Below, piece after piece: positions 12,779 through 38,484 of a stretch of DNA of 64,000 nucleotides (its first letter is position 1; every line of letters starts with the position of its first letter). Position numbers and translations under genes: made by a program. Source of the stretch: Candidatus Altiarchaeota archaeon (GTDB lineage: Archaea; Altiarchaeota; Altiarchaeia; IMC4; SCGC-AAA252-I15); NCBI GenBank assembly GCA_043800255.1, contig JAZDNF010000006.1, positions 3,901 to 67,900 of the forward strand, in the 5' to 3' direction. The notes beneath the pieces were generated by a model. That model made no database searches, was not told the origin of the DNA, and saw only the letters and a list, made by a program, of their open reading frames with translations.

Positions 12779-13894
12779 TCATTTCAAGGCCTTCAACAGA
12801 TCAGCAGAATCATACCTTAATAGGATGTCCCTGTTCCTGCCCCGCTCACCCGTCTTATAGGAAGTGTCTATCAGCTTGTAATGCTCCAGCTTCTGGATGA
12901 TCTGATTGTACTTTTTTATGCCGATTCTCGTGTCCCTGTTGAAGGCTTCGTAGATTTCGCCTGACGACTTTATGTCTGAGGAGGCTATCAGACGCAGAAG
13001 CTCCCCCTCCTCAGCATCCAATGCCCCGACGACCTTCTTAAGGCCGAGCAGCCTGGAACCCTTCTCAAACGCCTCCTCAACATGCTCCTTCGTAACCTTC
13101 TTCGAAGCCTTCGACTCCGCGAGGTATGCGCTCCTCCTCAGCAGGTCTATGCCAACCCTCAGATCACCCTGCGAGAACGTCTTCTCAACGACAATGTCCA
13201 GCACATTCTCGGATACCACGCCAGGATAGAAGCCGAACTTAGCTCGGTTGAGGAGTATCTCCCTGATCTCACTCACAGTATAAGGCTGGAAGAAAATCTC
13301 CTGCGGATTATAAACCGACTTCGTCTTCACATCCAACTGAGACATGTATTTTTCGTCTATCATGATCCCGATTATGCCGACCTTGTCGAAACCGTAGGAG
13401 CTGTGCGCCTTCAACAAGTCCAAGAGAACGCTGTCAACGTTCTTCTCCAAGAACAGGTTGTCGAACTCGTCCAATGCGACAGCCAGCGTCTTCTTCTCCG
13501 AAGTCAATTTCCTGAAAACCCTCTCCTTCACGGACTCCAGAGGCTTGCCGGTGTCAGGAGGACTGTGACCGAACACCTTCTCATGTATCTTAGAGAATAT
13601 GGAAAAGCGGGTGTGACAGTCCTCACAGTTGATGTAAACGGGAAGAAGCCGGGAAGTCTCCTCAGCGACCTGATTGAACAAGTATTTGATGGCAGTAGTC
13701 TTCCCCGTGCCCGGAGGCCCGTGGAGCAACGTATTCAAAGGGCTCACACCCCTCAGACCAGGCTTCAACGCAAGACTCAACCCCCCCAACTGGTCATCCC
13801 TGTGGATGAAATCCTCAGGAACATAGGACGGCGTGAAAACCTCCTCATCCTTGAAGAGCGTCTCATCCGACATGAGGAGTTTAGCCTTTTTCAC
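12779..13894 (-). CDS. cdc6: Orc1/Cdc6 replication initiator (AAA+ ATPase with winged helix).
   Basis: 371 aa with Walker A GPPGTGKT, Walker B LDEFD, and a C-terminal winged-helix region. Confidence 0.9.
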   Translation of the reverse strand: MKKAKLLMSDETLFKDEEVFTPSYVPEDFIHRDDQLGGLSLALKPGLRGVSPLNTLLHGPPGTGKTTAIKYLFNQVAEETSRLLPVYINCEDCHTRFSIFSKIHEKVFGHSPPDTGKPLESVKERVFRKLTSEKKTLAVALDEFDNLFLEKNVDSVLLDLLKAHSSYGFDKVGIIGIMIDEKYMSQLDVKTKSVYNPQEIFFQPYTVSEIREILLNRAKFGFYPGVVSENVLDIVVEKTFSQGDLRVGIDLLRRSAYLAESKASKKVTKEHVEEAFEKGSRLLGLKKVVGALDAEEGELLRLIASSDIKSSGEIYEAFNRDTRIGIKKYNQIIQKLEHYKLIDTSYKTGERGRNRDILLRYDSADLLKALK

Positions 13895-14249
13895 CTTAGA
13901 TATTGGGGGGTGGCATTATTTAACAGGGCGCAAGTTAAAAAAAAAGGTTAGGGTATGAGGGACTAGTGTATTAGGGTTACACTCAACCATTTCGGTCTGA
14001 AGCCGAGGTTTCTTTTGACGTAGAGGCTGTGGTAGTCCTTAAGCCGCACGTCCAAATTCTGGTCCTTTACCCGTCCTATACAAGGTGCCTTTTGTATCAT
14101 TTTGTCCTTCATACCCTTGATCCAAGTGGATTGTGAGAACCCCAACCACCCGGGAGGCATTATAGTCTTCGATTGGGCAGTATATACTGCTTGGGTGAGA
14201 GAGCGGGGGAAAAGTAATCTGCGGACATATTACCCAATAATGAGTAGTT

Positions 14250-14275
14250 ACAAAAAATCGAGTATTTTTAAACCA
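14250..14275 (+). promoter_or_regulatory. Putative archaeal TATA box upstream of the riboflavin operon.
   Basis: cgagTATTTTTAAAcc lies ~30-45 nt upstream of the ribB ATG at 14301. Confidence 0.4.
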
Positions 14276-14300
14276 TCAGGCGCACATATATTACCCTATC

Positions 14301-15427
<1,127 letters not shown>

Positions 15428-15442
15428 ATGAGGTGATATGAT

Positions 15443-15856
15443 ATGGAAAAAATAAACATGGGGATTGTTGCGGCAGAGTTCAACTATGACATAACCTATG
15501 CGATGGTCGAACTCGCCAAAGAGCACGCCGCATTCTTGGGGGCGAACGTCGTGGACATAAAGAAAGTTCCCGGAGTGTTTGACATGCCGTTGGTCGTCAA
15601 GCAGATGCTCAAGAGGAAGAACATAGACTGCGTCGTAACCCTCGGAGCAGTCATAGAAGGGCAGACGGAGCACGACGAGATTGTCATGCAACACGCTTCG
15701 AGGAAGATAGCAGACCTGGCTTTGGAGTATGAGAAGCCGACCGCGTTGGGCATTGCAGGACCCGGTATGTCAAGGCTTGAAGCCCACAAGAGGGTCGAGT
15801 ACGCGAAACGCGCCGTAGAAGCAGCAATCAAGACATGCAAAGTGCTGAGAGCATAG
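15443..15856 (+). CDS. ribH: 6,7-dimethyl-8-ribityllumazine synthase.
   Basis: 137 aa, ...GIVAAEFNYDIT...VVTLGAVIEGQTEHDEIV... lumazine synthase pattern. Confidence 0.9.
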   Translation: MEKINMGIVAAEFNYDITYAMVELAKEHAAFLGANVVDIKKVPGVFDMPLVVKQMLKRKNIDCVVTLGAVIEGQTEHDEIVMQHASRKIADLALEYEKPTALGIAGPGMSRLEAHKRVEYAKRAVEAAIKTCKVLRA

Positions 15857-15886
15857 TATTCTACCGCCAGCTTCCGTAATATTAAC

Positions 15887-16474
15887 GTGGAAGCCCAGAT
15901 GGGGAAGGACGCCTTCAGAAGGCGGTGGGACGACTACCTGAAGAACGAAGTCCCGAAGCTCATGGAGGAGGGCGTAAGAGACGGTAAACTTGACAAGGTC
16001 ACGTATCCCTCCATCGTTCTCGACGCGAGCGCACTCCAGATAGAGAGTCTGAACCTCCCTTCCGAGGAGGAAACGGCCGTAAAAGCGATAAACGCCAGGG
16101 AAGTCCAGTACGCCTCGCTGATAAAAAAGCTCGGCAGAGGCGAAAAACTTACCGAAAAAGATTCCACGAGATTCTACGACACATTCCGTGCAGATGTTTC
16201 CGAGATGAGACAAGACCTGAAACTCTCGGACATAAACCTCAGGAGAGATGAGGACACGAAATTAAACCAGTTTCTCAAAACAGACCTCACGAAAATCCAC
16301 GAACAGGGTACTCTGACAGGAGAGACCATCATGTCAGCGTTGAAATTCAACAGACTCCACCTCAGAGCCAGACTGGGCGATGAGAAGTTCAGGGAATATC
16401 TTGAGCTTGACAGGATAGCGAGAGACAGCCTCAGAAAAGAGAGCATGAAAAAAGCGCCGCCAGAGCTGAACTGA
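15887..16474 (+). CDS. Hypothetical protein (195 aa, predicted helical) embedded in the riboflavin cluster.
   Basis: Complete ORF between ribH and the pyrimidine reductase gene. No recognisable motif. Confidence 0.5.
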   Translation: MEAQMGKDAFRRRWDDYLKNEVPKLMEEGVRDGKLDKVTYPSIVLDASALQIESLNLPSEEETAVKAINAREVQYASLIKKLGRGEKLTEKDSTRFYDTFRADVSEMRQDLKLSDINLRRDEDTKLNQFLKTDLTKIHEQGTLTGETIMSALKFNRLHLRARLGDEKFREYLELDRIARDSLRKESMKKAPPELN

Positions 16475-16518
16475 ACCGTTTAAATACAGCTAATAGAATA
16501 TGTAACCGGTGGGTCAGG

Positions 16519-17148
16519 TTGGAACCGTACGTCATACTGAATTCTGCGATAAGCTTGGACGGCAAGATAGGCGGCAAAGCCAAGCAGATGGTCTTCTCCA
16601 ACAGGCTTGACACGTATAGGGTGAAGCAGCTGAGGGGGTCTGTTGACGCTGTCATGGTCGGCATAGAGACCATAAAGGCCGACAATCCTGAAATCTTGGT
16701 TAAAACCTCCGAGGGGAAGGAGCCTGTCAAGGTTATCATAGACCCGAAAGCAGAAATCCCGTTGGACGCGAACATACTCAAGGAGGACGCGCCCATAATA
16801 GTGGTGACTTCGAAGTCTGCAATTGGAAATAGGGTCGAGAGGATAAAAAACGCCGGCAAAAATGTTGAAGTAATGCAGATCGGCAGGGACGCAGTAAACC
16901 TCCGCGAGATGCTCTGGAGGCTCTATGAGATGCGCATCAGGAAAGTCCTGCTGGAAGGAGGCAGGAGCCTCGCGAGGAAGATGCTCAACGAAGGCTTCGT
17001 CAACGAGATGTTCCTCACAGTCGCCCCCAGGCTGATAGGAGACGGCATCGGATTCTTTCAGGGGGATGTTGACAAGGACATCGACCTCAAGCTTGAGGGA
17101 ATCCTGCAGTACGGAGACCTCGTAGTATTACATTATACCGTAAAATAA
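16519..17148 (+). CDS. 2,5-diamino-6-ribosylamino-4(3H)-pyrimidinone 5'-phosphate reductase (RibD reductase-domain / ArfC-like).
   Basis: 209 aa, ...YVILNSAISLDGKIG...VDAVMVG..TIKADNP.L...VLLEGGRSL..., the dihydrofolate-reductase-like RibD C-terminal-domain pattern. Confidence 0.8.
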   Translation: MEPYVILNSAISLDGKIGGKAKQMVFSNRLDTYRVKQLRGSVDAVMVGIETIKADNPEILVKTSEGKEPVKVIIDPKAEIPLDANILKEDAPIIVVTSKSAIGNRVERIKNAGKNVEVMQIGRDAVNLREMLWRLYEMRIRKVLLEGGRSLARKMLNEGFVNEMFLTVAPRLIGDGIGFFQGDVDKDIDLKLEGILQYGDLVVLHYTVK

Positions 17149-17150
17149 GC

Positions 17151-18401
17151 CTACTTCTCTCCAGGGTACATCTCCAGAAGCTCTAATGCGTAATCTCCCA
17201 GTTCCGAGCGCACCTGCCCGCCCGGGTTGTCTTTTCTCACTATATGCCTGAGACATCTTCTGGCTGACTCTTTGCTATTCTTGTCGTAGAATTCCTCGTC
17301 ATCAGCCGGCTTGTTCGCCAGATGATAGGGAGTCCTGCCTGCGAGACGGTCTTCGAACTTTCTGATCACTTTTTCTGTGATGATGTCAGGCCGCCGGTCT
17401 ACTATGCCGTTGAACAGCGTCACCATGTCAGATCGGGTAGAGGCTGACAGCAGGTCGCTTACTATGGCGCCCGCAAGATTCTCCATGAAATCCTCAGTAA
17501 GCAACTGGGGACGTGTAGCCGCGACCCCAGTGATATTCTTCAGCATGTGAGTGTACATCCAGCTGTACTGTTCGTTGGTTATGCTCCTGTCAAAGTCTGT
17601 CTTCCGGAAAAACTCGACCGAGTTTCCAGCTGCCCTGGCGACATAGTGTATTTTTTTGGCGAAAGCTCCCATTGGATGCTTCTCCTTTGTGACAATGTCC
17701 CAGAGGTTCTCATCCCTTTTAGAGATTGTAGCACTGGGCAGTATCTCAACCCCATTTTTGTCAAGCGCCTTGTAGACTTCACGGTTCACGTGCTTTAGTT
17801 TGGGGTCGGCGTCGTTCCCTTCCGGAGAGTCCAACAGTTTCCGATACTCTGCCCCAAGAGTCAGCCTCTTCACCATAGTGCCGAACTCGTCAGACGCCAG
17901 GCCCAGTCCCCTGGTGAAGCCGCCTAACGCTTTGACCGCCCGTTCCTTGGGGGTATCATCCGTCTGTATCACGCTTGCCAGCGCCTTCCCAGCGTACTTG
18001 TAAGTGTCATGGTCGGTTTCGATTATGTTATCGTCTCTTATCATCTCAGAGAGGTCTTTTATCGCCAGGTCAGCCCACTTTGACCTCTGAGCAGGCGTCT
18101 TGAAAACTATCCGGCTCAATGCAAAACCAACATAGGATTTCGCCTCCTTGCCTGCGTTGTACTTCCGAAGGGTGTCAACCAGCAGCTTGTATGCCGGCTG
18201 CGCAATCTCATCCGGCCCGTCTATAACGTATTTATCGAGCTTCTTGCAGGCAGAATCCATCTTCTGAGTGTCATCGCCTTCCAGGATGCCCTTAGCCTCA
18301 GCGATAGTTGATAAAGCCTCCATCAGAAAAGGCTCCCTCAACAGGGGGAGCTTGTCAGAGCCGCCACCCTCCAAGTTCAGCTTGACGATTTTAGTGGTCA
18401 T
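17151..18401 (-). CDS. Hypothetical all-alpha protein (416 aa). Its N-terminal 19 aa are identical or near-identical to those of the adjacent paralog.
   Basis: Starts MTTKIVKLNLEGGGSDKLP. 4-nt overlap with the upstream gene. Last gene of a minus-strand operon. Confidence 0.6.
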   Translation of the reverse strand: MTTKIVKLNLEGGGSDKLPLLREPFLMEALSTIAEAKGILEGDDTQKMDSACKKLDKYVIDGPDEIAQPAYKLLVDTLRKYNAGKEAKSYVGFALSRIVFKTPAQRSKWADLAIKDLSEMIRDDNIIETDHDTYKYAGKALASVIQTDDTPKERAVKALGGFTRGLGLASDEFGTMVKRLTLGAEYRKLLDSPEGNDADPKLKHVNREVYKALDKNGVEILPSATISKRDENLWDIVTKEKHPMGAFAKKIHYVARAAGNSVEFFRKTDFDRSITNEQYSWMYTHMLKNITGVAATRPQLLTEDFMENLAGAIVSDLLSASTRSDMVTLFNGIVDRRPDIITEKVIRKFEDRLAGRTPYHLANKPADDEEFYDKNSKESARRCLRHIVRKDNPGGQVRSELGDYALELLEMYPGEK

Positions 18402-19057
18402 TTTGGTCTGGGCCAGATTTTATTCTTGCGATGAAATATCCTAACATCCTCACTTAGGTTAGGCGCCAATTGGAACCTTTTCCCGCCAAGATGTATCTCG
18501 CCTGAGTGAGCATTAGATCCCACATTCATTCCAGCGTCACCATCCACCATCACGGTTGCGCCGTCCAGCTCGCTGCCTAGGCCGTTTTCTGCGCTGCCGT
18601 GTATCGTCACCTTCCCGGACTTCGCACCAAACGCGGCGTAATTCCCGACATCCCCCAGTATCGTAACCTCCTTCTGATTGTCCAAGCAGCTGCAAAGGTA
18701 GTTCAGTTTTGGCAGGCGGGCCACATCCAACACAATATTATTGTCCGGACAGTTGTTGATAAGGGCGCTCAGGAACATTCCAGCCTGAAACTGGAAGTAG
18801 ACTTCAGTATCAGAGTACGAAGGCAATATCACATCGATAAACCTTTGCATTGCATTAGCGTCGACAGAGACGCCAGAGGCGGCTTCTGAAGCATATAGGT
18901 AGTTGAAGTGCCCTGAAACCTGAGAGGTAAAACAGGATTGATGGTATTTCTCGTCCAACATCCCGAGAAGCCTCTCATCCACCCGGTTATCTCTCAACTT
19001 CGGCAGCCTGTCAGAGCCGCCACCCTCCAAGTTCAATTTCACAATCTTAGTGGTCAT
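18398..19057 (-). CDS. GXGXXG beta-helix domain protein (glutamate synthase domain-3 / FwdC-like).
   Basis: 219 aa. N-terminus is MTTKIVKLNLEGGGSDRLP. The C-terminal half reads GDVGNYAAFGAKSGKVTIHGSAENGLGSELDGATVMVDGDAGMNVGSNAHSGEIHLGG, a GXGXXG repeat pattern. Confidence 0.7.
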   Translation of the reverse strand: MTTKIVKLNLEGGGSDRLPKLRDNRVDERLLGMLDEKYHQSCFTSQVSGHFNYLYASEAASGVSVDANAMQRFIDVILPSYSDTEVYFQFQAGMFLSALINNCPDNNIVLDVARLPKLNYLCSCLDNQKEVTILGDVGNYAAFGAKSGKVTIHGSAENGLGSELDGATVMVDGDAGMNVGSNAHSGEIHLGGKRFQLAPNLSEDVRIFHRKNKIWPRPK

Positions 19058-19099
19058 TTGAGTTCTTGGGGTAGATGGTGATTTTGAAATTCCAGCTCT

Positions 19100-19858
19100 T
19101 CACATTATATCGTCGAATAGTTTTTTCGCATTGTTGATGTAGTTGAGATCGTGTTTTATTATATCAGACACTGTCTCCCTGCGCTTTTCATCTGTTATGG
19201 TTTCCGCTTTCTTCAGCCCGTTTTTGAGAATCCGCATCGCCTTCTCGCCTCTCCCAGAGGGTATGGAACGCCCCAGAGGCGGTTTGGACTCGTCGACCAG
19301 TGAGTTGGCGAGCGCTGCCCCCGCCCACTTGTTAGTCTCGTATGTGAAGGCTTCGCCTGTGAGAGCATCCTCGAGGACGTCAAAAACGGATTTAACAATG
19401 TCCTCCCTGTCGCCGGGCGCCAAGACTATGACCTTCCTAAGCCCCTGGGATGCAGCCTGCTTGGCGTCGCTGTCAGTTTCACTGTCGGTTAGAGCCTCGG
19501 TCAGAAGAGCCATACCAGCATTAGCCCTCTTCCAGTCCGGGTCTTTGATTACAACATCTGCGACAGCGTCGGCAGCCTTCAGCTTGTCAGACAGCGTTGC
19601 CTTTGGATTGAATAGGAGTTCCCCTTTTGTGCCAGCCAGTTCAGGCTCCTTTAGGGGAGGCATCTCCGCGGCATCCTTCTGGGGTTTCTTCTCCTGAGGA
19701 GGCATACTGTAGGGTTGCTTCTTCGCCTCCTTCGTCTCCCCCGTGCGGAGGTCAACGGTAAACCTTCTCGGAAGCTGTTTTTCTCTAACCATTTGTCGGT
19801 TTTTTGAGGTAGGTTTCTTTGGGGCCTGCCGCCTGTTTTCCGTTAACGTATACTCCAA
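19100..19858 (-). CDS. Hypothetical protein (252 aa, HEAT-like helical). The true start may be the internal Met near 19792.
   Basis: Complete ORF. Its 5' end overlaps the bactofilin gene by 74 nt in a different frame; if Met23 is the start the overlap is 8 nt. Lys/Pro-rich N-terminal region. Confidence 0.5.
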   Translation of the reverse strand: MEYTLTENRRQAPKKPTSKNRQMVREKQLPRRFTVDLRTGETKEAKKQPYSMPPQEKKPQKDAAEMPPLKEPELAGTKGELLFNPKATLSDKLKAADAVADVVIKDPDWKRANAGMALLTEALTDSETDSDAKQAASQGLRKVIVLAPGDREDIVKSVFDVLEDALTGEAFTYETNKWAGAALANSLVDESKPPLGRSIPSGRGEKAMRILKNGLKKAETITDEKRRETVSDIIKHDLNYINNAKKLFDDIM

Positions 19859-20366
19859 CCTTTGAAGTTGCTCCCTCCTTTGACAGGACGTCGCCCTTCT
19901 CAGCCTCTATCCTATCCTCTGCGGAAACCCTGCCAGACCATGATATGACGCTCATCCTGGCTGACACCTTGTTGGCTGAGATGTCGCCTTCAGCCTGGAT
20001 CTCGCCCCTGGAGGAGGTGATATTCCCTTTCGCCTTTATGCCAGCCCCCCTTGAATGGATGTCGCCTTCGACGTTTATGCTGCCGTCGGCTGTTATCTCA
20101 CCAGCAGCTATGACAGAGTAAGCCTTGAAGTTCTCATGGGGGATGTGAAGTTTACCGTCCGATATAACCGTCTTGGCAGACGCTGATGAGTCCAGGTACA
20201 GGTTCTCGCCCGGCTCTCCTCTGACGACACTATTGTTTCCGCGCACCACAGTATAGGCTTCGCCGCCCACGTCTATGGTCTCCTTCCCGTCAACAACCTT
20301 GATCTCCTCAACATATTCCGTATCTTCCCGCCTTTTGGTTCTTTCAATGCTGCTCATGTTGATCAC
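19785..20366 (-). CDS. Bactofilin-like beta-helical cytoskeletal protein (DUF583 family).
   Basis: 193 aa. The core reads ITADGSINVEGDIHSRGAGIKAKGNITSSRGEIQAEGDISANKVSARMSVISWSGRVSAED, matching the bactofilin winding repeat (G.I..G.I/V). Confidence 0.7.
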   Translation of the reverse strand: MINMSSIERTKRREDTEYVEEIKVVDGKETIDVGGEAYTVVRGNNSVVRGEPGENLYLDSSASAKTVISDGKLHIPHENFKAYSVIAAGEITADGSINVEGDIHSRGAGIKAKGNITSSRGEIQAEGDISANKVSARMSVISWSGRVSAEDRIEAEKGDVLSKEGATSKVGVYVNGKQAAGPKETYLKKPTNG

Positions 20367-20437
20367 ATTCTGATATGAATTCGTTTAGCATCCTTAAAGC
20401 CTCAGGCTTCATGCAGTCATCCCTGAAACCATAGTTT

Positions 20438-22753
20438 TTAATGGAGGATTGATTTGATGTCATCGTCTGATAGCATTTCCACACCGGTTATTCCAAGGCG
20501 CTCCGCCAGAGTTTTTAGGATGTCCCTTGCACCGTAGCTTTTGATTGCCGACTCATCAATGCCGCCGCCCATCTGGTTCACGACATCCTTTAGGATTCCG
20601 CGTATTGTTAAGCTGTTCTTGTTCAGGTCCTCCACCGGAACATTGCCTATGCCCCCGTGTTTTTTCGACAGGCTCCTGGCAGCTTCAAGCCTTACCGGCC
20701 TCCGGATGTCATCAACCAGCCTCAACGCCTCAGGCTCCCTGCTCAGTCTCTCGCATATCTGCTTTTCTATGACAGCATCAACTCCTTTCGTCCCCAGCCC
20801 GAATTTCTGATGCTCATCAGCCACCTTCTTTCTTAGAGACCTCTGGGACATGGTTGGGTCCGCATCAAGGGCGTCAAAGTATAGCATTGCGATCTGCTTG
20901 TTCCTCTCCCAGTCAGGCTGCCTGTAAAGAGTGTCAAACAGCTTCCCCCTTGTTTCTGCCGGTTGACTGGCGAGAATCTCCCTGAACTCTTTAGGACTTA
21001 CTGGCTGAATTTCACCCCACTCCACCAGATAGCCGTTAACCTTCTCAGCAACCAGCGGCTGCTCGCTTAAACGTTTGTATGCCCCTGAGATTGCGTCCAC
21101 AATGGTCTGTTTGCCCCGCTTGAACTCATCAGCCAACTGTTTGAGTTCAACCCCGCCAGTTAGGTGCCGTCTCATGGTCTCACGATCCCTTTCAGAGCCT
21201 ATGTCAGATTTTTCAGAAGTTAGCGGGTTATTTCTAGGCACCTTGGATATGAACCACCCTAGGTCTGCCTGCGGGACATGCGAGAGCACTTCCCTGACAG
21301 TTTCTGCAGACACCTTGGGGATAGACTTCAGCCTCCCTGATTCTGCAAGCAGCTCTGAGACAGCATGCGGCCTTTTGCGGAGACGCTCTATGGAGTTCGT
21401 AACCGCCTTCTCGGACACGTGGGAGTCGTACTCTTTCATCCTGTTGATGTCCGGGCAGGAGTACGCTTCCCTGAAATGCAGCCTCATTATCTCGATGTCC
21501 CTGTCCCTGTTCCCGGTCTTCGGCAGACCGGACATTATCTCGTTGAACTTCTCATCGCTTGTGCTCCTCAGAACCCATCTCACCGCTTCATTAGTGATTT
21601 CAGGGTTCTCTATGCGCTGTCTGAACCCGTTTAGCTCCCTGATAACATGCAGGTTCCCTCTAAGCCCTTCTATAACAGCTGCAGACAATGTGATGGGTCT
21701 ATTCTTTCCCACGCCGAACCGCTCAGAAAGCTCTGCTACTGTGCTGTCGTCTTCCTGATCGAAGTAAGCGCTCAACAGCTCCCGCTCCTTCGGATCAGAG
21801 GGGTATGCGGTTGACTGGCTTAGTATGCGCTCCCTATCGGTTGAGGATATCAGACGCAGAATTTTTCGGGTATCCTCGACAGAAGGCATTTGCAATTTAA
21901 TTCTGGCTCCCGGGCCAGGTATGGAGTTTTCAATGTGCTCTCTCAGATCGGAGTTTTTCAGGACATTCTTGATCGCCTTTGTCTCGCGGCCGTCAAGAGT
22001 TCCTTGCGCCAATCCCAATTTGGAGGCTGCCTGCGCTCTTGTGATGGACCTCGCACCAAAGCGCAGTCTCAGTATATCAGAATCAGATTTAGGGACTCCT
22101 CTCCGAAAGCAGTCAGCCAGAAAGTTATCAAATTTGTCACCTGGCATCTGCTCCAGCAAAGACCTGTAATAGTCCACTTCCTCCCCGGAGGGCATCAGAC
22201 CGAGTTTCTCGAACGCCCTTGACTCTACCCTGACAATCTCTTTAATGCTGGTGTCCGTCAGCTCCCTGATCCTTTTGTCGCCGTGGCCTTCCTTGAAACG
22301 CAGTGACAGTATGTTCCTCTCCTCGTCGGTCAGAGCCTTGGAGCCGATAAGCGTGGCCTTCTCAGCAGGATCCATCGACTTCAACATCTTATGTACTTCC
22401 CTGTATGAGATTTTCCTTTTGTGATAGGGAATGACGTCAGGTTTCTTCGGGGGGCTTATGGACAATCCGACAACGCCCTCAGAGGTTATCGCGTACGCGT
22501 CTGACTGTCCCAACTCAGAGGACAGGAACTTTTTCTTTCTCTGCGGGGGAACGTCTGCGCGTTTGACCTCAGAGACTTCCAGGCGCCTGCCCTTCCCGCT
22601 GAGGTCGCCCAGCTTTTTGACGCTTATCTCCTTAAGCTCGTCTCCGTCGCGCAGGTAGACTTTCGCGTTCTCAGAATGAAGCTTTCTCAATAGCTGTTCC
22701 TTCAGCACCGGAATCTGGTCGTCGCTTATGTCTGCAACCTTTATTTTCGCCAT
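20438..22753 (-). CDS. 771-aa protein containing about five tandem sigma-70 region-4 / LuxR-like HTH repeats.
   Basis: Repeats include EERNILSLRFKEGHGDKRIRELTDTSIKEIVRVESRAFEKLG, SDILRLRFGARSITRAQAASKLGLAQGT, RDIEIMRLHFREAY...VSEKAVTNSIERLRKRP, RETMRRHLTGGVELKQLADEFKRGKQTIVDAISGAYKRL and NKQIAMLYFDALDADPTMSQRSLRKKV. Each resembles the sigma70_r4 pattern (..ILxLRF....T..EIA..LG.S...V......A..KLR). Confidence 0.65.
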   Translation of the reverse strand: MAKIKVADISDDQIPVLKEQLLRKLHSENAKVYLRDGDELKEISVKKLGDLSGKGRRLEVSEVKRADVPPQRKKKFLSSELGQSDAYAITSEGVVGLSISPPKKPDVIPYHKRKISYREVHKMLKSMDPAEKATLIGSKALTDEERNILSLRFKEGHGDKRIRELTDTSIKEIVRVESRAFEKLGLMPSGEEVDYYRSLLEQMPGDKFDNFLADCFRRGVPKSDSDILRLRFGARSITRAQAASKLGLAQGTLDGRETKAIKNVLKNSDLREHIENSIPGPGARIKLQMPSVEDTRKILRLISSTDRERILSQSTAYPSDPKERELLSAYFDQEDDSTVAELSERFGVGKNRPITLSAAVIEGLRGNLHVIRELNGFRQRIENPEITNEAVRWVLRSTSDEKFNEIMSGLPKTGNRDRDIEIMRLHFREAYSCPDINRMKEYDSHVSEKAVTNSIERLRKRPHAVSELLAESGRLKSIPKVSAETVREVLSHVPQADLGWFISKVPRNNPLTSEKSDIGSERDRETMRRHLTGGVELKQLADEFKRGKQTIVDAISGAYKRLSEQPLVAEKVNGYLVEWGEIQPVSPKEFREILASQPAETRGKLFDTLYRQPDWERNKQIAMLYFDALDADPTMSQRSLRKKVADEHQKFGLGTKGVDAVIEKQICERLSREPEALRLVDDIRRPVRLEAARSLSKKHGGIGNVPVEDLNKNSLTIRGILKDVVNQMGGGIDESAIKSYGARDILKTLAERLGITGVEMLSDDDIKSILH

Positions 22754-22762
22754 GATTTAGAG

Positions 22763-24514
22763 TCACAATTCTGCAATGAACTTGCTGGCCCTCCCGCTTT
22801 TCTCCAGGCTGTCGAATACCGACTCTAGGTGACCCCTAACCCTCTGTGAGAGGTCCTTATTATCATGCGCTTTAAGAAGGTCTCGTATCGCGGGCACTGC
22901 AATGCCGCCAGAAGCGAATTTCGCAAGCGTTTCCAAGCCTGATGTGGCAGCCATCTTCTCCCTGTCGGAGGTTCTGCCGCTGTTAAGGTCTTCCGCGAAA
23001 TCTTCGCGCGCCTGCTCCATGCGGGACCTTGCCACAGCCGACGTGTTCATCCCCTTGAAGCCTGCCTCGATTGTCCTGCGGACTTTCTCAGGGAGGCTCT
23101 TATCACGCTGTAATCCGATAACGTCCTTGACAGCTTGTACTCCGACGTCCTGGGAGGAGAATTTGATCACATTCACGAGGCCTGCAAGAAGCCACTGTTT
23201 CAGTTCGATCAGCTGGTCGCCTGTGACCCCCTCCGGTTCGTCTCTTATCGCTGACACCATGTCGTCGTGGGTCTTATCTATCATCCCAGGAGGCTTGTTT
23301 TTCAAGTCATACAGTAGACCATAATGCGCCCAGTATTTTGTCCCGTAGTCTCTGCCGTTTCTCAGGGCATCAGACAACGCCTGATAGGCCTTATCCTGTA
23401 ATCCCTCAGGCCCATGGGATGCAATAGCTGACAGACTGCCTGCAGCCATGTACTGGCTTGTCAATCCAGGCACGTCAGTGCCGAAGTCCGAGCCTTCGGC
23501 ATTCAGTAGGCCGTCCCTGAAGACGTCCAGAAGATTGGAGGTTACCTTCTCGGGGTATCTCCTTAGTATGCTCTGCAGTCTTTGGTCGACGTGTTTTCCG
23601 GCAAGAACCGGCAGGTTCCCGCTCACGGCTGATTTGGACAGCAACAGAAGCTGGCCGGTTGTGATTGATGATCCGTTGTAGAGTATGGAATCCACCACTT
23701 CAGCAGCAGCATATCTGACGTCCTTGGAGGAATCTCCTGAGAAAGCGTCCAGAAGCCTCTCGCATATGTGTGTTCCGATTTTCTCATGCCCGCTCACCGC
23801 CAGTTGGGCGACATTATCCCTCAGATCGTCTTTGTAGTTTCGTGTTCGTCTATCCCTCCCCTCGAGACTCCTACTCTTCGTCAGCCCGTCAATCAGAGTG
23901 TCGGCTACACCAACGGTTAGGATATTGTGGAATTCAGGCCTCTTGTAAACCGACTTCAAAGCCCTGTGGATTACCCAAGAGTTTGATTTGTCCCTCGCGA
24001 ACTCGTTCGCCAATATCTGAACCTCGTCAGAGGTGACGAGTTCAGGATGCCTCCACATCGAATCCGCAAGATTGGAGGCGCATGCGTCCCGCGCCTCTCC
24101 GTTACCCCACTTTGCGACCGCGTCCGACATCATCCTGCGCGCCCTGACTGACCTGTCTTTTGGAGCGTTTACTAGAATGCGCCTTAGCGCTTCTCCTGAC
24201 TCGTGCTTCGAAAAGTCCGGCGAGTCAGCGCTTCTGAGAACCTCTTCAAGCACTCCGAAGGCTTGGTCAACGGTGTCAGCATGTTCCTTCGGAGCCCTGA
24301 TTATGATCTGCGACAGGCCCTTGGCAGCATTCACTTTGGGCATCTGCTGATAAGGCCTTTGGCTGTATTCTCCCTCCCCGAAGAGGGCGTCCCTGAAGTC
24401 TCTTATGTTCTCGCTTAATGCTGGTTTCAGGGGGATTGCTCGTACCTTGTCCTTCTCCCCGTCAGGCGCTTTTTGCAGGCTGAAACCGTCTTTTTGGATT
24501 TCCTCGATAGACAT
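22763..24514 (-). CDS. Hypothetical HEAT/ARM-like helical repeat protein (583 aa); first gene of the operon.
   Basis: Complete ORF, 9-nt spacer to the downstream gene, helical repeat character. Confidence 0.55.
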   Translation of the reverse strand: MSIEEIQKDGFSLQKAPDGEKDKVRAIPLKPALSENIRDFRDALFGEGEYSQRPYQQMPKVNAAKGLSQIIIRAPKEHADTVDQAFGVLEEVLRSADSPDFSKHESGEALRRILVNAPKDRSVRARRMMSDAVAKWGNGEARDACASNLADSMWRHPELVTSDEVQILANEFARDKSNSWVIHRALKSVYKRPEFHNILTVGVADTLIDGLTKSRSLEGRDRRTRNYKDDLRDNVAQLAVSGHEKIGTHICERLLDAFSGDSSKDVRYAAAEVVDSILYNGSSITTGQLLLLSKSAVSGNLPVLAGKHVDQRLQSILRRYPEKVTSNLLDVFRDGLLNAEGSDFGTDVPGLTSQYMAAGSLSAIASHGPEGLQDKAYQALSDALRNGRDYGTKYWAHYGLLYDLKNKPPGMIDKTHDDMVSAIRDEPEGVTGDQLIELKQWLLAGLVNVIKFSSQDVGVQAVKDVIGLQRDKSLPEKVRRTIEAGFKGMNTSAVARSRMEQAREDFAEDLNSGRTSDREKMAATSGLETLAKFASGGIAVPAIRDLLKAHDNKDLSQRVRGHLESVFDSLEKSGRASKFIAEL

Positions 24515-24633
24515 TGTACATGATTTTAAGGAGTTCTGGGATAAATACGCTCACTCCCTGCTTTTCGCCCGCACCAAGTCCAACATAGATTTATTTAAAT
24601 CAAATTCCAATATCCTTCTGAGGTGAGGTCATA

Positions 24634-25863
24634 ATGGCCAAGGATCAGACTAGAATAGTGTTTGTCTTAACTGTCTTCGTTATGAGCGTCTTATATTCCG
24701 CATCTGCGAAGTCCCTCGTCGAGTGGGATACTGACGCCAGAGAGAGGTACAATAATGCGAAGAACGAGTATCTGCGGGTGAGTAATGCTTACAGGGAGGC
24801 GATGCAGGACTGGATCACGGCGAAGAACGCCTACCAGCAGAACAAGAGCAAGGGGAACACGGAGAACGCCCTTGAAAGTTGGAAGAACCACCTGCTTGCG
24901 GCAGACCAGAGGCTTGTGGCCTACCTCGAGGCTCTGAAAGCTTACGCCGAAGGCGAGCCGACTTTGGATGAAACAGAAAGGCAGGAGATAATCTCTGAAG
25001 TGGAGGGTTACATCAACTGGCTGGAGCAGAAGCAGCCTGAGATCGAGGCTGCGACCACAAGGCAGGAGCTGCAGGACATCACAACGACTGTCAGAGAGGA
25101 ATGGAATAGTATAAAACCTGCAACCAGGAGGATAATCGGGCAGATGATGAACGCGAAAGTCTTATGGGTTATAAACAAGGCGGAGAACGTTTCAGCAAAG
25201 GCTGAGGAAGCGATAGACAAGCTCGACGCGGCTGGGGAGGACACAACCGAGCTGGAGTCGCTGCTTGCAGACTTCAACGCGAAATTGGACCTGGCCAGGG
25301 AGAAGCATGATGCCGCCAGCGCAAAGTACGCTGAAAGCAGAAATGCTGGAGAAGTGGACAGCCTGCTTAGAGAGGCTGACGCTCTGGTTAGGGAGGCTAA
25401 CGGTTACCTGAAGGAAGCGTACACGACGCTGAAGCAGCTGGTGAAGGAGATACGGGAGTCCGCTTCAGGGAAGGTGAGAGTCCGCGGCACGGGGAAACTG
25501 TGGGCTGCTGGAGACGGGGAGGCCACAATCTCAGGAAATGCCACAGTCGAGTTGACCGGGGAGGACGGAGAGCTTGAGCTGCACGACAAAGGAGGGGACA
25601 TGATTGAGACGGTGACCGGCTTCGGAGACAGGAGAGTGACCGGGCAGATAATAAGGTACAGTGGATCCGGCACAGCAACAGTCTCGGGGAGCGACATCGT
25701 CGTCAAACTGGAAGCCTCGAATGTCGACCTGTACGCTGAAGGCACAGGCAAAGCCAAACTGAAGGGAACTGGAACGTATAAGACGTGCGGGACTGGCGCG
25801 TGCGCTGAAGGCGCGTGGACTTCCGCCGGCGTTGACGTGACCATCTCAGCGAACGTAGGATGA
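24634..25863 (+). CDS. Secreted coiled-coil protein with a Gly/Thr-rich beta C-terminal region (409 aa).
   Basis: N-terminal signal/anchor IVFVLTVFVMSVLYSASA, a long helical region, then GTGK.../GSGTATVSG repeats. Confidence 0.6.
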   Translation: MAKDQTRIVFVLTVFVMSVLYSASAKSLVEWDTDARERYNNAKNEYLRVSNAYREAMQDWITAKNAYQQNKSKGNTENALESWKNHLLAADQRLVAYLEALKAYAEGEPTLDETERQEIISEVEGYINWLEQKQPEIEAATTRQELQDITTTVREEWNSIKPATRRIIGQMMNAKVLWVINKAENVSAKAEEAIDKLDAAGEDTTELESLLADFNAKLDLAREKHDAASAKYAESRNAGEVDSLLREADALVREANGYLKEAYTTLKQLVKEIRESASGKVRVRGTGKLWAAGDGEATISGNATVELTGEDGELELHDKGGDMIETVTGFGDRRVTGQIIRYSGSGTATVSGSDIVVKLEASNVDLYAEGTGKAKLKGTGTYKTCGTGACAEGAWTSAGVDVTISANVG

Positions 25864-26240
25864 AAAACAGGATACTGATAATTGGGATAATAGCGCTGCT
25901 TGTCTTGTCCAGCCCAGGATGCCTCAGAAAATTGAGAGGCGGACAGAGAGCCACCACAATCGTGCCAACGACCATAGCAGAGACTCAACAGGCTGCCCCA
26001 ACAGACGAGGAAGCCTCCGAAGCAGAGCCGATAGCTGACATAACCTCTGAAGAATCCAAGCTGACGCCTCCGGACGTTGACTTAGACTTAGACCTCGAGC
26101 CAACAACGACTGTTGAAACCACCATCCCAGAGGTAATGTCAGACGAAGACCTGGCAGAACTTGATACCATCATAAACAACATCAACACCATAGAAACAGA
26201 ACTGTACGCAGGCGACCTGGACCTGGACATCAGCCTGTGA
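25860..26240 (+). CDS. Small acidic secreted lipoprotein-like protein (126 aa).
   Basis: Signal peptide MKNRILIIGIIALLVLSSPGC, then a D/E/T-rich region. 4-nt overlap with the upstream gene. Confidence 0.5.
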   Translation: MKNRILIIGIIALLVLSSPGCLRKLRGGQRATTIVPTTIAETQQAAPTDEEASEAEPIADITSEESKLTPPDVDLDLDLEPTTTVETTIPEVMSDEDLAELDTIINNINTIETELYAGDLDLDISL

Positions 26241-26351
26241 GCCCCCATTAGTTCCCTTCTTAGGGGACTAGGGCGAGCCACAGGCCGCACCAAGATAACG
26301 GGGGATTGAGAGCAAGGGAATCAGTAAGAAGTCTGGGATTGTCTCTTGCAG

Positions 26352-26374
26352 TCATTGCTCGTCTTTGTGATATA
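26352..26374. repeat. Direct repeat copy 1 (tcattgctcgtctttgtgatata).
   Basis: 22/23 identity to 27269-27291. The match extends ~12 nt further (tctcttgcag versus tctctggcag) across a 6-nt indel. Confidence 0.6.
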
Positions 26375-26432
26375 ACCTTAAAAAAGAGGATATGATAGTA
26401 TTCCTAGATCTATTTGAGGCATAGTGTTGGTT
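26352..26432 (-). pseudogene. Truncated remnant of a relE-like toxin gene 3' end.
   Basis: The minus strand encodes ...NTIISSFLRLYHKDEQ*, bounded by an upstream in-frame stop. This matches the C-terminus of the intact RelE at 27269-27517 (...KIIFLDLYHKDEQ*). The terminal 23 nt are a 22/23 match. Confidence 0.4.
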
Positions 26433-26460
26433 TTATTTTAGCATTTCGATATTTGATGTA

Positions 26461-26955
26461 ATGTCAAACGCTGGCCCCGTTATTCTGTATTTGGATAATA
26501 CCGAGCTTTACGGCTCCTTGAAGAAAGCGATAAAACACTATCTAACTGGAGGTACTGGAGGTGTACGATCTAAGTTTCTGGATTATCTAAAGAAGTTGCA
26601 GGATTCGGGGGGTGTCGTTGTATTAACTTCTGAGCTCGCTGAATTTGAAGCTATTAGACGACTGCTCACGGATTTCCCAGAATTGACGTTTAACAAGGCT
26701 CTTGAAGCTTGGATGGAGTTGAGGGGAAGGTATGATATTCGTTCAATAGATCTCCGAGACTGTAAGACAATAAATCTTGACCTTAAATTCTTCCAGAAAA
26801 CAGGATTCGACTATAAAGATGGGATGCATTATTCAGTGGCAAAAAAATATGGGGCTTTTATTGTGACTGGAGATGGGAAATTTGGAGAAACGGCAGAGCA
26901 GGTATACAAGGGTAAAGTACTAAGAAGAGGGGACGTATATCAAAAATTCAAGTAA
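26461..26955 (+). CDS. PIN-domain protein (VapC-like nuclease fold), 164 aa.
   Basis: The N-terminal Asp sits in ILYLDNTELYG. C-terminal AFIVTGDGKF resembles the PIN TxDxxF motif. AT-rich codon usage. Confidence 0.55.
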   Translation: MSNAGPVILYLDNTELYGSLKKAIKHYLTGGTGGVRSKFLDYLKKLQDSGGVVVLTSELAEFEAIRRLLTDFPELTFNKALEAWMELRGRYDIRSIDLRDCKTINLDLKFFQKTGFDYKDGMHYSVAKKYGAFIVTGDGKFGETAEQVYKGKVLRRGDVYQKFK

Positions 26956-27268
26956 TTATTTAGATTTCTTAATGATTTTAGCTAAATCTTTTGCTATGGT
27001 ATCTAGATTAACCCTGTTAGACACTCCTTTTACCTCAGTTACAGGAATCCGAAAACCATTAACTTTCAGGGTTTTTTTCACCGCATGGATTTGCATAATA
27101 GCTCACCCGTATACAATATAATAGAGGATATAGAACTTAAAAAAGGGCCATTTTTGTTTATTCTACTCAAACGTGCATTTACTTCTTAAAACAGCCTTCT
27201 AGGCAGTATACAGTTAGTTTCTGTTTTTCTGGGCAGCGTTTTTCCATGTTTTTCTCTGGCAGGATCAC

Positions 27269-27291
27269 TCATTGCTCGTCTTTGTGGTATA
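27269..27291. repeat. Direct repeat copy 2 (tcattgctcgtctttgtggtata), which is the 3' end of the relE coding sequence.
   Basis: See copy 1. The two copies flank the PIN gene 26461-26955, about 915 bp apart. Confidence 0.6.
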
Positions 27292-27517
27292 GGTCTAGGA
27301 AGATTATTTTGTCCTCTTTTTTGAGGTGCATGTATGACAGGCGGAATGGCGGGATTTTGACTTCCCTGCTGTCCTTTCGGACGTAGCGCATCGGTTTTCC
27401 GACTTCAGGATTGCTGACTATCTTCTTAATCTGCTTTTTGACTCGTTCTTTCAGGTCTCGGTTTTTGATTCTCTTTATTATGTTCTCAAAATGCGGTTCG
27501 TATGCGACAGTTACCAT
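27269..27517 (-). CDS. relE: RelE/ParE-family type II toxin.
   Basis: 82 aa. The C-terminal ...RLSYMHLKKEDKIIFLDLYHKDEQ pattern is typical of RelE/StbE toxins. 7-nt overlap with the upstream antitoxin gene. Confidence 0.7.
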   Translation of the reverse strand: MVTVAYEPHFENIIKRIKNRDLKERVKKQIKKIVSNPEVGKPMRYVRKDSREVKIPPFRLSYMHLKKEDKIIFLDLYHKDEQ

Positions 27518-27780
27518 GTCTCAAGTTCAGCCAGGAATTTGTCGCCGCTAGTCTCCTTGAACTTGCCCTTCTCGTATCTTTCCAACGCCTCCACAGTCCT
27601 TTTCGCGAACTTCAAGTCTTCCATGAAAGTCCCACCCAACTCCCGGACCGGTTTGAGTATGAACTGGCGGTCTTTTTTGATGATGACGAATTTATCGCCC
27701 ACATTGAACCCCTCCCGCATGTCCTGCGGTATCACAACCTGACCCTTGGAACTTAATTTGGTAACGTCCACATTAATCAT
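27511..27780 (-). CDS. AbrB/MazE/SpoVT-family antitoxin.
   Basis: 89 aa. ...LSSKGQVVIPQDMREGFNVGDKFVII is a swapped-hairpin AbrB/MazE motif. Immediately upstream of and overlapping relE. Confidence 0.7.
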   Translation of the reverse strand: MINVDVTKLSSKGQVVIPQDMREGFNVGDKFVIIKKDRQFILKPVRELGGTFMEDLKFAKRTVEALERYEKGKFKETSGDKFLAELETW

Positions 27781-28960: not shown

Positions 28961-29014
28961 TACATATTAACTCTAGAAAGCCCTTAAAAACACCGCGAGC
29001 AACGGAAAAATAGA

Positions 29015-37797: not shown

Positions 37798-38484
37798 TTA
37801 CTTGAGTCTGTTGGTGAGGGTTTGTCCGGGGCCTGCTTTTCTCTGGTTTTCTCTGAATCTGATGCGGCCCTGAAGTGAGAGGATGTCCTTGTAAGCGTAG
37901 ACTTCATCTGTTGCAGAGACTATGTCGTCTTTGGCGCGGATTCCGCCGCTCTTGGAGATGATAGGCCCTCTGGCCCGCATCACGCCGGATTTGGACTCTA
38001 TGTCCCCGTTGGCTGTGATGCTCCCATCCCAGGCGATGAGACTGTCGCCTGATGTTATGGAACCTCCGGCTGCTATGTCGCCCTTGAATGAGTTTATGGC
38101 CCCGCTGTGAGAGTATATGTCTCCGCCGGCCCGTATCGGGCCATTGTCAGCGTTTATGTCCCTCTCAGCCCGTATGCTGCCGACCGCGTCTATGCCGCCG
38201 TCAGCTTCTATCCTGCTCTTCGCCCTGAAATCAGGATTCGATATTATGAGCCTGCCTCCGGTCTTCAGGCGCTCAATCTGGGAGCAGGACTCGGCCAGGA
38301 TGAAATTCTCATCCCCGCCCCTGACGGCAACCTGATTTCCCACCAGGACTGTGTAATCAATGCCTTCGAGAGTGACCTTCCCATTGGAAACAGGGCATTG
38401 CCTGCCTCCGACCGTTAACTCAGCCAGAGGTTTGATGTCCTCAAGCCCGCCCCTCTCTCCCGCACAGTAGACCTTCTGGACCAT
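37798..38484 (-). CDS. Bactofilin-like beta-helical protein (second paralog), 228 aa.
   Basis: ...GGIDAVGSIRAERDINADNGPIRAGGDIYSHSGAINSFKGDIAAGGSITSGDSLIAWDGSITANGDIESKSGVMRARGPII, a bactofilin-type winding repeat. Confidence 0.7.
   Translation of the reverse strand: MVQKVYCAGERGGLEDIKPLAELTVGGRQCPVSNGKVTLEGIDYTVLVGNQVAVRGGDENFILAESCSQIERLKTGGRLIISNPDFRAKSRIEADGGIDAVGSIRAERDINADNGPIRAGGDIYSHSGAINSFKGDIAAGGSITSGDSLIAWDGSITANGDIESKSGVMRARGPIISKSGGIRAKDDIVSATDEVYAYKDILSLQGRIRFRENQRKAGPGQTLTNRLK

Follow-up and report, generated by a model that had tools for sequence, protein, structure and literature searches.

A cluster of six soluble, repeat-built proteins in a Candidatus Altiarchaeota genome: a possible lineage-specific cytoplasmic scaffold

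The window analyzed here, a 64,000-nt stretch of an uncultured archaeal genome, contains a compact run of six minus-strand genes, which we denote g1 to g6 in their order along that strand: g1 (22763..24514, 583 aa, V1921_02590), g2 (20438..22753, 771 aa, V1921_02585), g3 (19785..20357, 190 aa, V1921_02580), g4 (19100..19792, 230 aa, V1921_02575), g5 (18398..19057, 219 aa, V1921_02570), and g6 (17151..18401, 416 aa, V1921_02565). The NCBI annotation of the source MAG (Candidatus Altiarchaeota) also calls these six ORFs (V1921_02590 to 02565), including a g1 product of identical length and a g4 product of 230 aa; we place the start of g3 at an ATG rather than the GTG at 20366, and that of g4 at an ATG rather than the TTG at 19858. 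The tight packing reported in the first-pass annotation of this DNA is borne out, with successive spacers or overlaps from g1 to g6 of 9, 80, -8, 42, and -4 nt; the g4 ATG sits inside the end of g3 (an 8-nt overlap), and the g5 stop and g6 start overlap as ATGA. At 190-771 aa, all six ORFs are long, with no interruption; their codon usage is coding-like (GC1>GC2<GC3) and close to that of the genome backbone, although the fit lies among the lower backbone values, and GC3 is likewise backbone-like at 0.60-0.64. The six genes are real. Upstream of g1, the 119-nt divergent intergenic region (24515..24633) holds A/T-rich TATA-like motifs, one of which, tatttat, precedes the g1 ATG by ~30 nt, and, as read from the sequence, is a putative archaeal promoter; internal promoters could also occur within the 80-nt and 42-nt gaps.

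The cluster encodes six soluble, non-enzymatic, repeat-built proteins. None of the products carries a transmembrane segment, and g2 is the sole basic product (pI 9.1, versus 5.7-6.7 for the other five). Searches of Pfam, NCBIfam, PADLOC, and PHROGs detected neither enzymatic nor defence nor phage domains among the six products, in agreement with the earlier remark that no housekeeping enzyme is present, and Pfam and NCBIfam gave no effector domain, whether nuclease, NTPase, integrase, or other. PADLOC-DB gave no match for any product at E<=0.1, and the PHROGs matches were at noise level (E>=0.02). Nor could the cluster be matched to a described system in Pfam, NCBIfam, PADLOC, PHROGs, or the PDB, as had been suspected.

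In the largest product, g2, residues 1-113 form an N-terminal region and residues 681-771 a C-terminal module; between them, residues 114-680 (nt 20714-22414) are made up of six ~95-aa units in tandem. Every such unit consists of a helical hairpin followed by a sigma-70 region-4-like helix-turn-helix (HTH), and the two-helix hairpin ('xVRxxLxxxP') is conserved before every HTH copy; g2 displays the helix plus HTH with long recognition helix that characterizes the sigma-4 fold. With the cut-off at 24.1 bits, the full-length protein matches Pfam Sigma70_r4 (PF04545) in three stretches at 38.8 bits (E 6.5e-10); taken by itself, unit 1 reaches 21.1 bits, and three of the six units match at E<=1. 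The sigma-70 region-4-like repeats of the first-pass annotation are therefore sustained by the profile match, but their number within the 771 aa is six, not five. A bacterial sigma factor was considered and rejected, as Pfam and NCBIfam gave no match to Sigma70_r2 or r3 and the host is an archaeon. Compared with the HTHs of sigma-70 region 4 and ECF sigma-4, LuxR/GerE, Tfx, YlxM, and KorA, g2 differs in its six tandem copies, and to the region 4-type proteins it adds the hairpin before each copy as well as a rare C-terminal module. Sigma-4/LuxR-type HTHs bind DNA, and sigma-4 domains are also able to bind proteins such as anti-sigma factors and the RNAP flap. Two of the units, U3 and U5, have an acidic or neutral character, and the window showed no array of DNA repeats that could offer six binding sites. 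When g2 was searched exhaustively with HMMER against 1.84 billion representative proteins, only four weak, partial matches emerged. The units are recognizably related to those of distant bacterial proteins, and two distant relatives of g2, P0005 (with a receiver domain) and P0006 (with an XRE HTH), look regulatory.

Three further products, g1, g4, and g6, are probably alpha-helical repeat proteins and have in common a repeated helix-turn-helix motif ('A..aL..ii..aP ... a..vLeeaL'). When g1 was compared by phmmer with all window ORFs, the only non-self matches were g4 (E 1.1e-5) and g6 (E 0.043); the three are weak paralogs of one another. The earlier description of HEAT-like proteins finds weak support: g1 matches HEAT_2 (PF13646) at residues 250-273 with E 0.0055, at 17.4 bits against a cut-off of 27.7, and HEAT (PF02985) at 12.7 bits against 23.5, so that the gathering score is not reached; g4 and g6 have no match to the HEAT profiles, and g4 has no Pfam match at all. 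The repeated motif and the sub-threshold HEAT_2 match of g1 recall alpha-solenoid scaffolds of the HEAT/PBS-lyase type; unlike these, none of the three scores at a gathering threshold, and the PDB contains neither a sequence match for g1 nor a relative of the profile of the shared module. The g1 protein is soluble, with no transmembrane segment and a pI of 6.5. In g4 the repeat domain follows ~75 N-terminal residues rich in K, P, and E, and in g6 it follows a short peptide shared with g5. ARM/HEAT solenoids commonly bind extended peptides.

This peptide spans residues 1-23 of both g5 (nt 18989-19057) and g6 (nt 18333-18401), and forms a conserved amphipathic strand followed by GGG. At the DNA level it appears as a 70-nt direct repeat at the two gene starts (18334-18403 and 18990-19059, 84% identical), which upholds the earlier claim of an N-terminal peptide common to the 219- and 416-aa proteins. 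The first 23 codons differ by eight synonymous and four non-synonymous changes (omega 0.10, binomial p 0.0018), and the peptide is thus under purifying selection. Residues ~108-214 of g5 (nt 18416-18736) comprise GXGXG/FwdC-type coils, with a middle domain lying between these and the shared peptide. The coils align to solved GXGXG coils, matching PDB FmdC/FwdC chains with E 2e-9 to 3e-7, and g5 matches NCBIfam FwdC (NF042910) with E 9.7e-10; this local similarity, read from sequence comparison, is significant, and the GXGXXG beta-helix type proposed for g5 is supported at E 1e-9 to 2e-9, though far under the family cut-offs. Specifically, g5 scores 37.9 bits against a cut-off of 340 for NF042910, 35.5 against 130.65 for TIGR03122, and 15.4 against 32.5 for Pfam GXGXG (PF01493), and membership of the FwdC/FmdC/GXGXG family was rejected because the scores do not reach these full-length cut-offs. 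Relative to FwdC/FmdC and the glutamate-synthase domain-3 GXGXG beta-helix, g5 has only ~105 coil residues and an unrelated N-terminal half, and no formylmethanofuran dehydrogenase (fwd/fmd) subunit gene was matched among the window genes scanned.

The first-pass annotation had identified g3 as a bactofilin. Like bactofilins (PF04519; BacA, TtBac, and the halofilins HalA/HalB; defined in PMC11459167), g3 is small, with central short-strand repeats of the beta-solenoid kind flanked by non-repeat tails. The repeat is of 13 residues (6+7) over residues ~80-170 (nt 19848-20120; periodicity z 4.3), and g3 is probably a beta-solenoid; this unit length is neither proof nor exclusion of a triangular helix. 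A paralog, g3' (37798..38484, minus strand, 228 aa), lies outside the operon (phmmer E 4e-19; BLASTP 34% identity over 154 aa, E 3e-17), with stronger 13-residue periodicity (z 8.0) and a native-like GC3 of 0.66; because it stands alone, proteins of this type are not dependent on the operon. The bactofilin label failed in profile searches, the outcome that the first-pass annotation had itself named as refuting it, and the profile-profile and PDB searches likewise gave no support. Neither g3 (at E<=1) nor g3' (at E<=0.1) matches PF04519, whereas real plasmid bactofilins score 6.8e-20 to 3e-24 with the same tool; hhalign of a g3+g3' profile against five annotated bactofilins gave a probability of 0.2% over 13 columns; and no bactofilin chain occurs among the PDB sequence matches. 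At the sequence level, g3 is not detectably a bactofilin. Its closest similarities, all below cut-offs and at best marginal, are instead to the beta-solenoid of FapA (DUF342; PF03961, 18.2 bits against 31, E 0.002) and the C-terminal beta-helix of MinC (NF001819, 18.1 bits against 273, E 0.0014; hhalign with E. coli MinC-CTD, probability 5%, E 0.007, 39 columns), but no MinD/MinE or flagellar context surrounds g3, and g3' matches FapA at only E 0.09. A word search of proteins with g3 returned g3 itself as the sole match, and the single-sequence AF2 model of g3 reached a pLDDT of only 34.

The surroundings of the cluster bear on how it is interpreted. As noted earlier, an orc1/cdc6 gene (12779-13894) lies nearby, 3.3 kb from the cluster; the suggested link to chromosome organization does not extend beyond this proximity. 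A five-gene plus-strand block, four of whose genes function in riboflavin synthesis, separates the two in the opposite orientation, and no origin-like or ORB-like repeat array was seen upstream of orc1/cdc6 (13850-14320). On the other side, ~2 kb away, begins a low-GC island (26.3-37.7 kb) encoding PIN, ParE, and Bro-N proteins, a type IIG restriction-modification enzyme, a PD-(D/E)XK/Cas4-like nuclease, and a DarG-like macrodomain, with g3' on its far side; the GC3 of the cluster is unlike that of the island. Clustering at 90% identity leaves every product of the six as a singleton, each annotated as hypothetical; homologs of g2 and g3 are essentially lacking among the proteins searched, and the only relative that emerged does not preserve the gene order around ribD_C. 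IMG/VR contained no relatives of g1, g3, or g5, and PLSDB none of g3', the sole member searched there. The cluster is lineage-specific, seen so far in just one Altiarchaeota MAG, and because no homologous operon occurs in any collection searched, functional linkage of the six genes lacks comparative support.

We tentatively favor, with low confidence, a lineage-specific cytoplasmic scaffold complex built around a polyvalent nucleic-acid-binding protein. The six products would be co-expressed and assemble into one complex, in which the six HTH units of g2 may bind nucleic acid, probably DNA, in a multivalent fashion; the helical-repeat proteins g1, g4, and g6 could act as adaptors, and g5 and g6 might be recruited to a common partner through their N-terminal peptide, which could either bind within the groove of a solenoid or add a strand to a beta-solenoid. 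Counted for this reading were the gene packing with its two start/stop overlaps, near-native codon usage, the g1/g4/g6 paralogy, selection on the g5/g6 peptide, the basicity of g2, the lack of transmembrane segments and of enzymatic, defence, or phage domains, the GXGXG coils of g5, and the periodicity of g3; counted against it were the lack of a homologous operon, the solitary g3', the sub-threshold HEAT scores, the low g3 pLDDT, the capacity of sigma-4 domains to bind proteins, the acidic or neutral U3 and U5, and the lack of a six-site DNA array. A bolder version appears unlikely: an enzyme-free nucleoprotein scaffold of an Altiarchaeota lineage, not described before, and new archaeal chromatin or cytoskeletal organizer, in which the hexavalent sigma-4-type protein organizes DNA and alpha-solenoid adaptors recruit beta-solenoid modules through an N-terminal 'docking tag' common to two otherwise unrelated proteins. 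If the six products do form one complex, it would represent a scaffold of a new type, non-enzymatic and associated with DNA, in an archaeal phylum that is deep-branching and uncultured, with the first described protein of six tandem sigma-4-like HTH units and a short N-terminal tag recruiting two different proteins to a common partner, and would show sigma-4-type domains at work far outside the initiation of bacterial transcription. At present this is a single-genome ORFan cluster, useful in practice mainly as a clearly bounded subject for structure prediction, metatranscriptomics, and heterologous reconstitution.

Several alternatives compete with the scaffold complex. Bactofilins work with PadC and ParB in Myxococcus (the BacNOP-PadC-ParABS system), and g3, too, is clustered with a gene for a putative DNA-binding protein. 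The first-pass annotation envisaged an archaeal analogue, tied to orc1/cdc6, in which g3 would polymerize and g2 tether DNA to the filament. The beta-solenoid-like short-strand repeat of g3, the basic multi-HTH character of g2, and the proximity of orc1/cdc6 favor such a model, and HHpred is needed for divergent archaeal bactofilin domains, which BLAST can miss (PMC11459167); yet we consider it highly improbable, given the missing PF04519 matches of g3 and g3' (1e-20 to 1e-24 for real bactofilins), the negative hhalign and PDB results, the marginal preference for FapA/MinC, the intervening plus-strand block with no ORB-like array, and the absence of any ParA/ParB/PadC-like gene here. Bactofilin should not be assigned by eye from beta-solenoid-like repeats. 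It is also improbable that the genes encode no single machine, with g2 a lineage-specific transcription regulator (of Tfx/LuxR/sigma-4 type) of its neighbours and the other five unrelated, fast-evolving repeat proteins sharing its operon. The sigma-4/Tfx-like matches of g2 and its regulatory-looking distant relatives are consistent with this, as is the precedent of Tfx, an archaeal DNA-binding regulator encoded beside fmdECB, whose FmdC is a GXGXG protein (PMC3087415); but the Tfx match of g2 is only E 0.016 (NCBIfam), six tandem HTHs in 771 aa would be an unusual regulator architecture, g5 falls far below the FwdC cut-offs with no dehydrogenase subunit among the genes scanned, and paralogy together with the shared peptide ties together four of the other five genes.

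An accessory module outside core cell biology that originated in a mobile element or defence island, such as an undescribed defence or anti-defence system or what is left of an integrated element, has a similarly low probability. The genes of the nearby low-GC island, the orphan distribution, the low-end codon fit, and the unconserved ribD_C synteny point in this direction, against which stand the backbone-like rather than island-like GC3 and codon usage, the PADLOC, PHROGs, IMG/VR, and PLSDB results, and six products with no effector domain. Finally, it is very unlikely that some or all of the ORFs are annotation-level ORFans, sequences that are evolutionarily young or in decay and serve no selected function: their singleton, hypothetical status and the near lack of homologs for g2 and g3 would fit, but the reading frames are long with genome-like composition, the Sigma70_r4 match exceeds its gathering score and the FwdC coils reach E 1e-9, g3 and g3' have stayed 34% identical over 154 aa, the g5/g6 peptide is constrained, and the units of g2 retain a recognizable relationship to those of distant bacterial proteins.

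Six co-directional minus-strand genes, g1 to g6, form a compact cluster encoding soluble, non-enzymatic repeat proteins, which matches no known system, as the first-pass annotation had held, and carries an HTH protein of an extremely rare family. In order, these are g1 (22763-24514; 583 aa), g2 (20438-22753; 771 aa), g3 (19785-20357; 190 aa), g4 (19100-19792; 230 aa), g5 (18398-19057; 219 aa), and g6 (17151-18401; 416 aa), which NCBI annotates as hypothetical proteins numbered in sequence, V1921_02590 to V1921_02565, on a 118.7-kb contig of a 'Candidatus Altiarchaeota archaeon' MAG. Both ORF calls and the NCBI annotation agree with the close packing described originally, but the longest-ORF starts then chosen for g3 (GTG, 20366) and g4 (TTG, 19858) are probably wrong; ATG codons at 20357 and 19792 yield the 190-aa and 230-aa products annotated by NCBI. 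Spacers measure 9 nt (g1-g2), 80 nt (g2-g3) and 42 nt (g4-g5), while g3 and g4 overlap by 8 nt and g5 and g6 by ATGA. The pattern GC1>GC2<GC3 holds in all six genes (GC3 0.60-0.64), and by codon fit they fall at the lower edge of the backbone range, clearly apart from the adjacent low-GC island. Therefore, ORFs, spacing, GC pattern and codon fit together show that the genes are real and near-native, and arranged like an operon. TM segments and enzymatic domains are absent from all six products, and none matches PADLOC or PHROGs, consistent with the earlier remark that no housekeeping enzyme is present. The original observation was thus largely right; its headline, 'bactofilin-associated', was not.

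That headline depended on g3, for which no PF04519 match was found. Sub-threshold matches occurred to FapA (18.2 bits against a cut-off of 31) and MinC (E 0.0014), and a PDB sequence search with g3 matched nothing. As a positive control, real plasmid bactofilin genes annotated 'polymer-forming cytoskeletal protein' were run with the same tool, and matched PF04519 at 7e-20 to 3e-24. Aligned by hhalign, the g3-family profile gave a probability of 0.2% over 13 columns with the control bactofilin alignment, and 5% (E 0.007) over 39 columns in the C-terminal beta-helix of E. coli MinC. The window also encodes a paralog of g3 outside the cluster, g3′ (37798-38484, minus strand; 228 aa), with 34% identity over 154 aa (E 3e-17); it reaches FapA at E 0.09 and, as for g3, has no bactofilin match. 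At the level of sequence and profile, g3 is therefore rejected as a bactofilin, being no detectable member of that family. A 13-residue (6+7) repeat, 'sG.I.a.gdI.s.', is present in g3 (z = 4.3) and clearer in g3′ (z = 8.0); it fits a beta-solenoid of short strands, and g3 is probably a beta-solenoid protein. Single-sequence AF2 modeling of g3 returned a pLDDT of 34. A superfamily-level relationship to bactofilins may exist, because very divergent bactofilin domains have been recognised only with HHpred (PMC11459167).

The assignment of sigma-70 region-4-like HTH repeats to g2 was upheld by Pfam Sigma70_r4 (38.8 bits, above the cut-off of 24.1), but their number is six rather than five. The units, delineated by eye and with MAFFT, are ~95 aa each, start near residues 114, 192, 289, 384, 479 and 584, and have a two-helix element, 'xVRxxLxxxP...', ahead of the HTH; three of them match PF04545 when taken alone. 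Scored one at a time in a leave-one-out test, with an HMM of the remaining ten units (five of g2 and five of a pair of distant proteins), all six reached 11.9-46 bits, whereas 200 shuffles gave no more than 9 bits. AF2 modeling of unit 5 with the 11-unit alignment reached a pLDDT of 76.6, and Foldseek matches for the unit had non-significant E-values. With a pI of 9.1 and net charge of +12, g2 alone is basic (pI 5.7-6.7 for the other five products). Its C-terminal ~90 residues (681-771; nt 20441-20713) constitute a separate, rare module, 'GG[IL]GNVP..L....L[ST]L.GI......GG', matched by no Pfam family. Two copies occur in a deltaproteobacterial multidomain protein of 3140 aa (P0003), and one in an XRE-HTH protein of 301 aa known from bacterial metagenomes (P0006). 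Among archaeal DNA-binding proteins, the gene for Tfx adjoins fmdECB in Methanothermobacter (PMC3087415), and g2 weakly matches the Tfx NCBIfam family (E 0.016). The pairing of g2 with the FwdC-like g5 faintly recalls this arrangement; neither similarity is strong enough to carry an argument.

The beta-helical g5 had been described as a GXGXXG protein of the FwdC type. Its C-terminal ~105 residues indeed align, at E 2e-9 to 3e-7, with GXGXG coils in FmdC/FwdC chains of solved structure, and NCBIfam FwdC models are matched at E about 1e-9, yet with scores an order of magnitude under the family cut-offs; g5 possesses GXGXG-type coils without being FwdC. Also proposed was a common N-terminal peptide in g5 and g6, and it is confirmed by 84% identity between two 70-nt stretches. 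The shared sequence, MTTKIVKLNLEGGGSD(K/R)LP(L/K)LR(E/D), occurs in no other ORF of the window, and includes KIVKLNLE, with the alternation of an amphipathic beta-strand, followed by GGG. Over the first 23 codons, g5 and g6 differ by eight synonymous and four non-synonymous changes (dS 0.81, dN 0.08, omega 0.10; binomial p 0.0018), a substitution pattern that therefore shows an old duplication and purifying selection on the peptide. Its reading as a double-glycine leader or an encapsulation peptide was set aside: by eye, the consensus fits poorly, and neither a C39 peptidase/ABC exporter nor a shell gene lies in or beside the cluster.

Products g1, g4 and g6 are related to one another: phmmer against all window ORFs returned, besides self, only their mutual matches (g1-g4, E 1e-5; g4-g6, 4e-3 to 9e-3; g1-g6, 2e-3 to 4e-2), and a module of about 90 residues is common to all three. 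The 'HEAT-like' label goes back to a single sub-threshold HEAT_2 match, in g1. A PDB search with a profile of the module found nothing.

Relatives of the cluster are scarce. A full HMMER search with g2 against 1.84 billion cluster representatives (E<=1e-3) yielded four matches besides g2 itself, all weak and partial. Two of them (P0004, and P0005 from an Omnitrophota MAG) contain two or three g2-homologous units each, on contigs of 3.4-3.6 kb that provide no gene context; a third, P0006, lies in ordinary bacterial chromosome. Word-index searches with g2 and g3 gave self matches only. At 90% identity, g4, g5 and g6 are singleton clusters, and that of g1 (P0008; L003-L007) has one other member, its representative. 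Because this representative is a 48-aa fragment from gut-metagenome phage contigs, we regard the membership as a clustering artefact rather than a real relative. Scanning GTDB representatives with the neighbouring RibD_C revealed one distant Altiarchaeota relative (41% identity), in which gene order differs and g1-g6 homologs are absent. No match came from metagenomes (scanned with g6 and the g2-unit alignment), from IMG/VR (scanned with g1, g5 and the g3 family) or from PLSDB (tblastn with g3′). So far, the cluster appears unique to this MAG, as judged from full-sensitivity HMMER for g2 and less sensitive searches for g1, g4, g5 and g6.

What is observed is internal paralogy of g1, g4 and g6, a selected N-peptide in g5 and g6, and a basic, hexavalent sigma-4-type protein, g2. 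We tentatively infer that the six products could form a joint cytoplasmic scaffold, in which g2 would provide multivalent nucleic-acid binding, the probable helical-repeat proteins g1, g4 and g6 would serve as adaptors, and the g5/g6 N-peptide would act as a docking tag. ARM/HEAT proteins bind extended peptides; the tag might be held in a solenoid groove, or added as a strand to a beta-solenoid. Any functional claim for the cluster is speculative, as it draws on sequence data from a single genome and no conserved gene context was found.

It is unlikely that g2, with its HTH units, is a stand-alone regulator among unrelated neighbours, and an accessory or defence-island module is likewise improbable, PADLOC and PHROGs lending no support to a defence or phage origin. 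The codon statistics described here are those of near-native genes, and we consider non-functional ORFans very unlikely. Least credible is the bactofilin-based role in chromosome organisation suggested by the first-pass annotation from the proximity of orc1/cdc6 (12779-13894). The distance was correct (3.3 kb), but five oppositely oriented genes intervene, four of them housekeeping, and the intergenic region adjoining orc1/cdc6 contains neither an ORB-like repeat array nor a marked AT-rich stretch. No DNA target arrays or origin repeats were found near the cluster, upstream of orc1/cdc6 (13850-14320), or in tandem window-wide.

The intervening genes form a riboflavin block (14301-17148, plus strand), downstream of the cluster and convergent with it, with orc1/cdc6 beyond: ribB, archaeal-type riboflavin synthase, ribH, an ORF with no Pfam match (15887-16474, plus strand) and RibD_C. 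This compact operon ends 2 nt from the g6 stop codon and includes two adjacent DMRL_synthase-fold genes (14963-15856, plus strand): one of 154 aa, probably the archaeal-type riboflavin synthase, followed by ribH with 137 aa. Beside orc1/cdc6, an 843-aa ORF (10242-12773, plus strand) has a C-terminal PTS HPr domain as its sole Pfam match (E 9e-8); such a domain joined to a large uncharacterised protein is unusual for an archaeon. The window contains no tRNA or Rfam family.

Upstream of g1 and divergent from it, two secreted or lipoprotein-like ORFs (24634-26240, plus strand), neither with a family match, are probably cell-surface proteins: one of 409 aa, coiled-coil-like in its middle, with an N-terminal signal/TM segment and a C-terminus that is both beta-rich and G/T-rich, and an acidic one of 126 aa with a lipobox-like 'SSPGC' signal. 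Beyond these extends the low-GC island (~26300-37700; GC 0.33-0.48 compared to about 0.52), with defence or mobile-element content: PIN (26461-26955), ParE toxin (27269-27517), Bro-N (28097-28960), a type IIG Eco57I/MmeI-like restriction-modification enzyme (30637-33606), a PD-(D/E)XK/Cas4-like nuclease (33682-34899) and a DarG-like macrodomain (36674-37219). No integrase family was detected among the island ORFs scanned. The solitary g3′ lies at the island's far edge, where GC is native; provided that the island was inserted recently, g3′ would once have been within about 2 kb of the cluster's divergent neighbours. Finally, an 804-aa ORF (43532-45946, minus strand) with neither Pfam nor NCBIfam match includes, at 45107-45189, about 5.5 imperfect copies of a short tandem DNA repeat with a period of 15.
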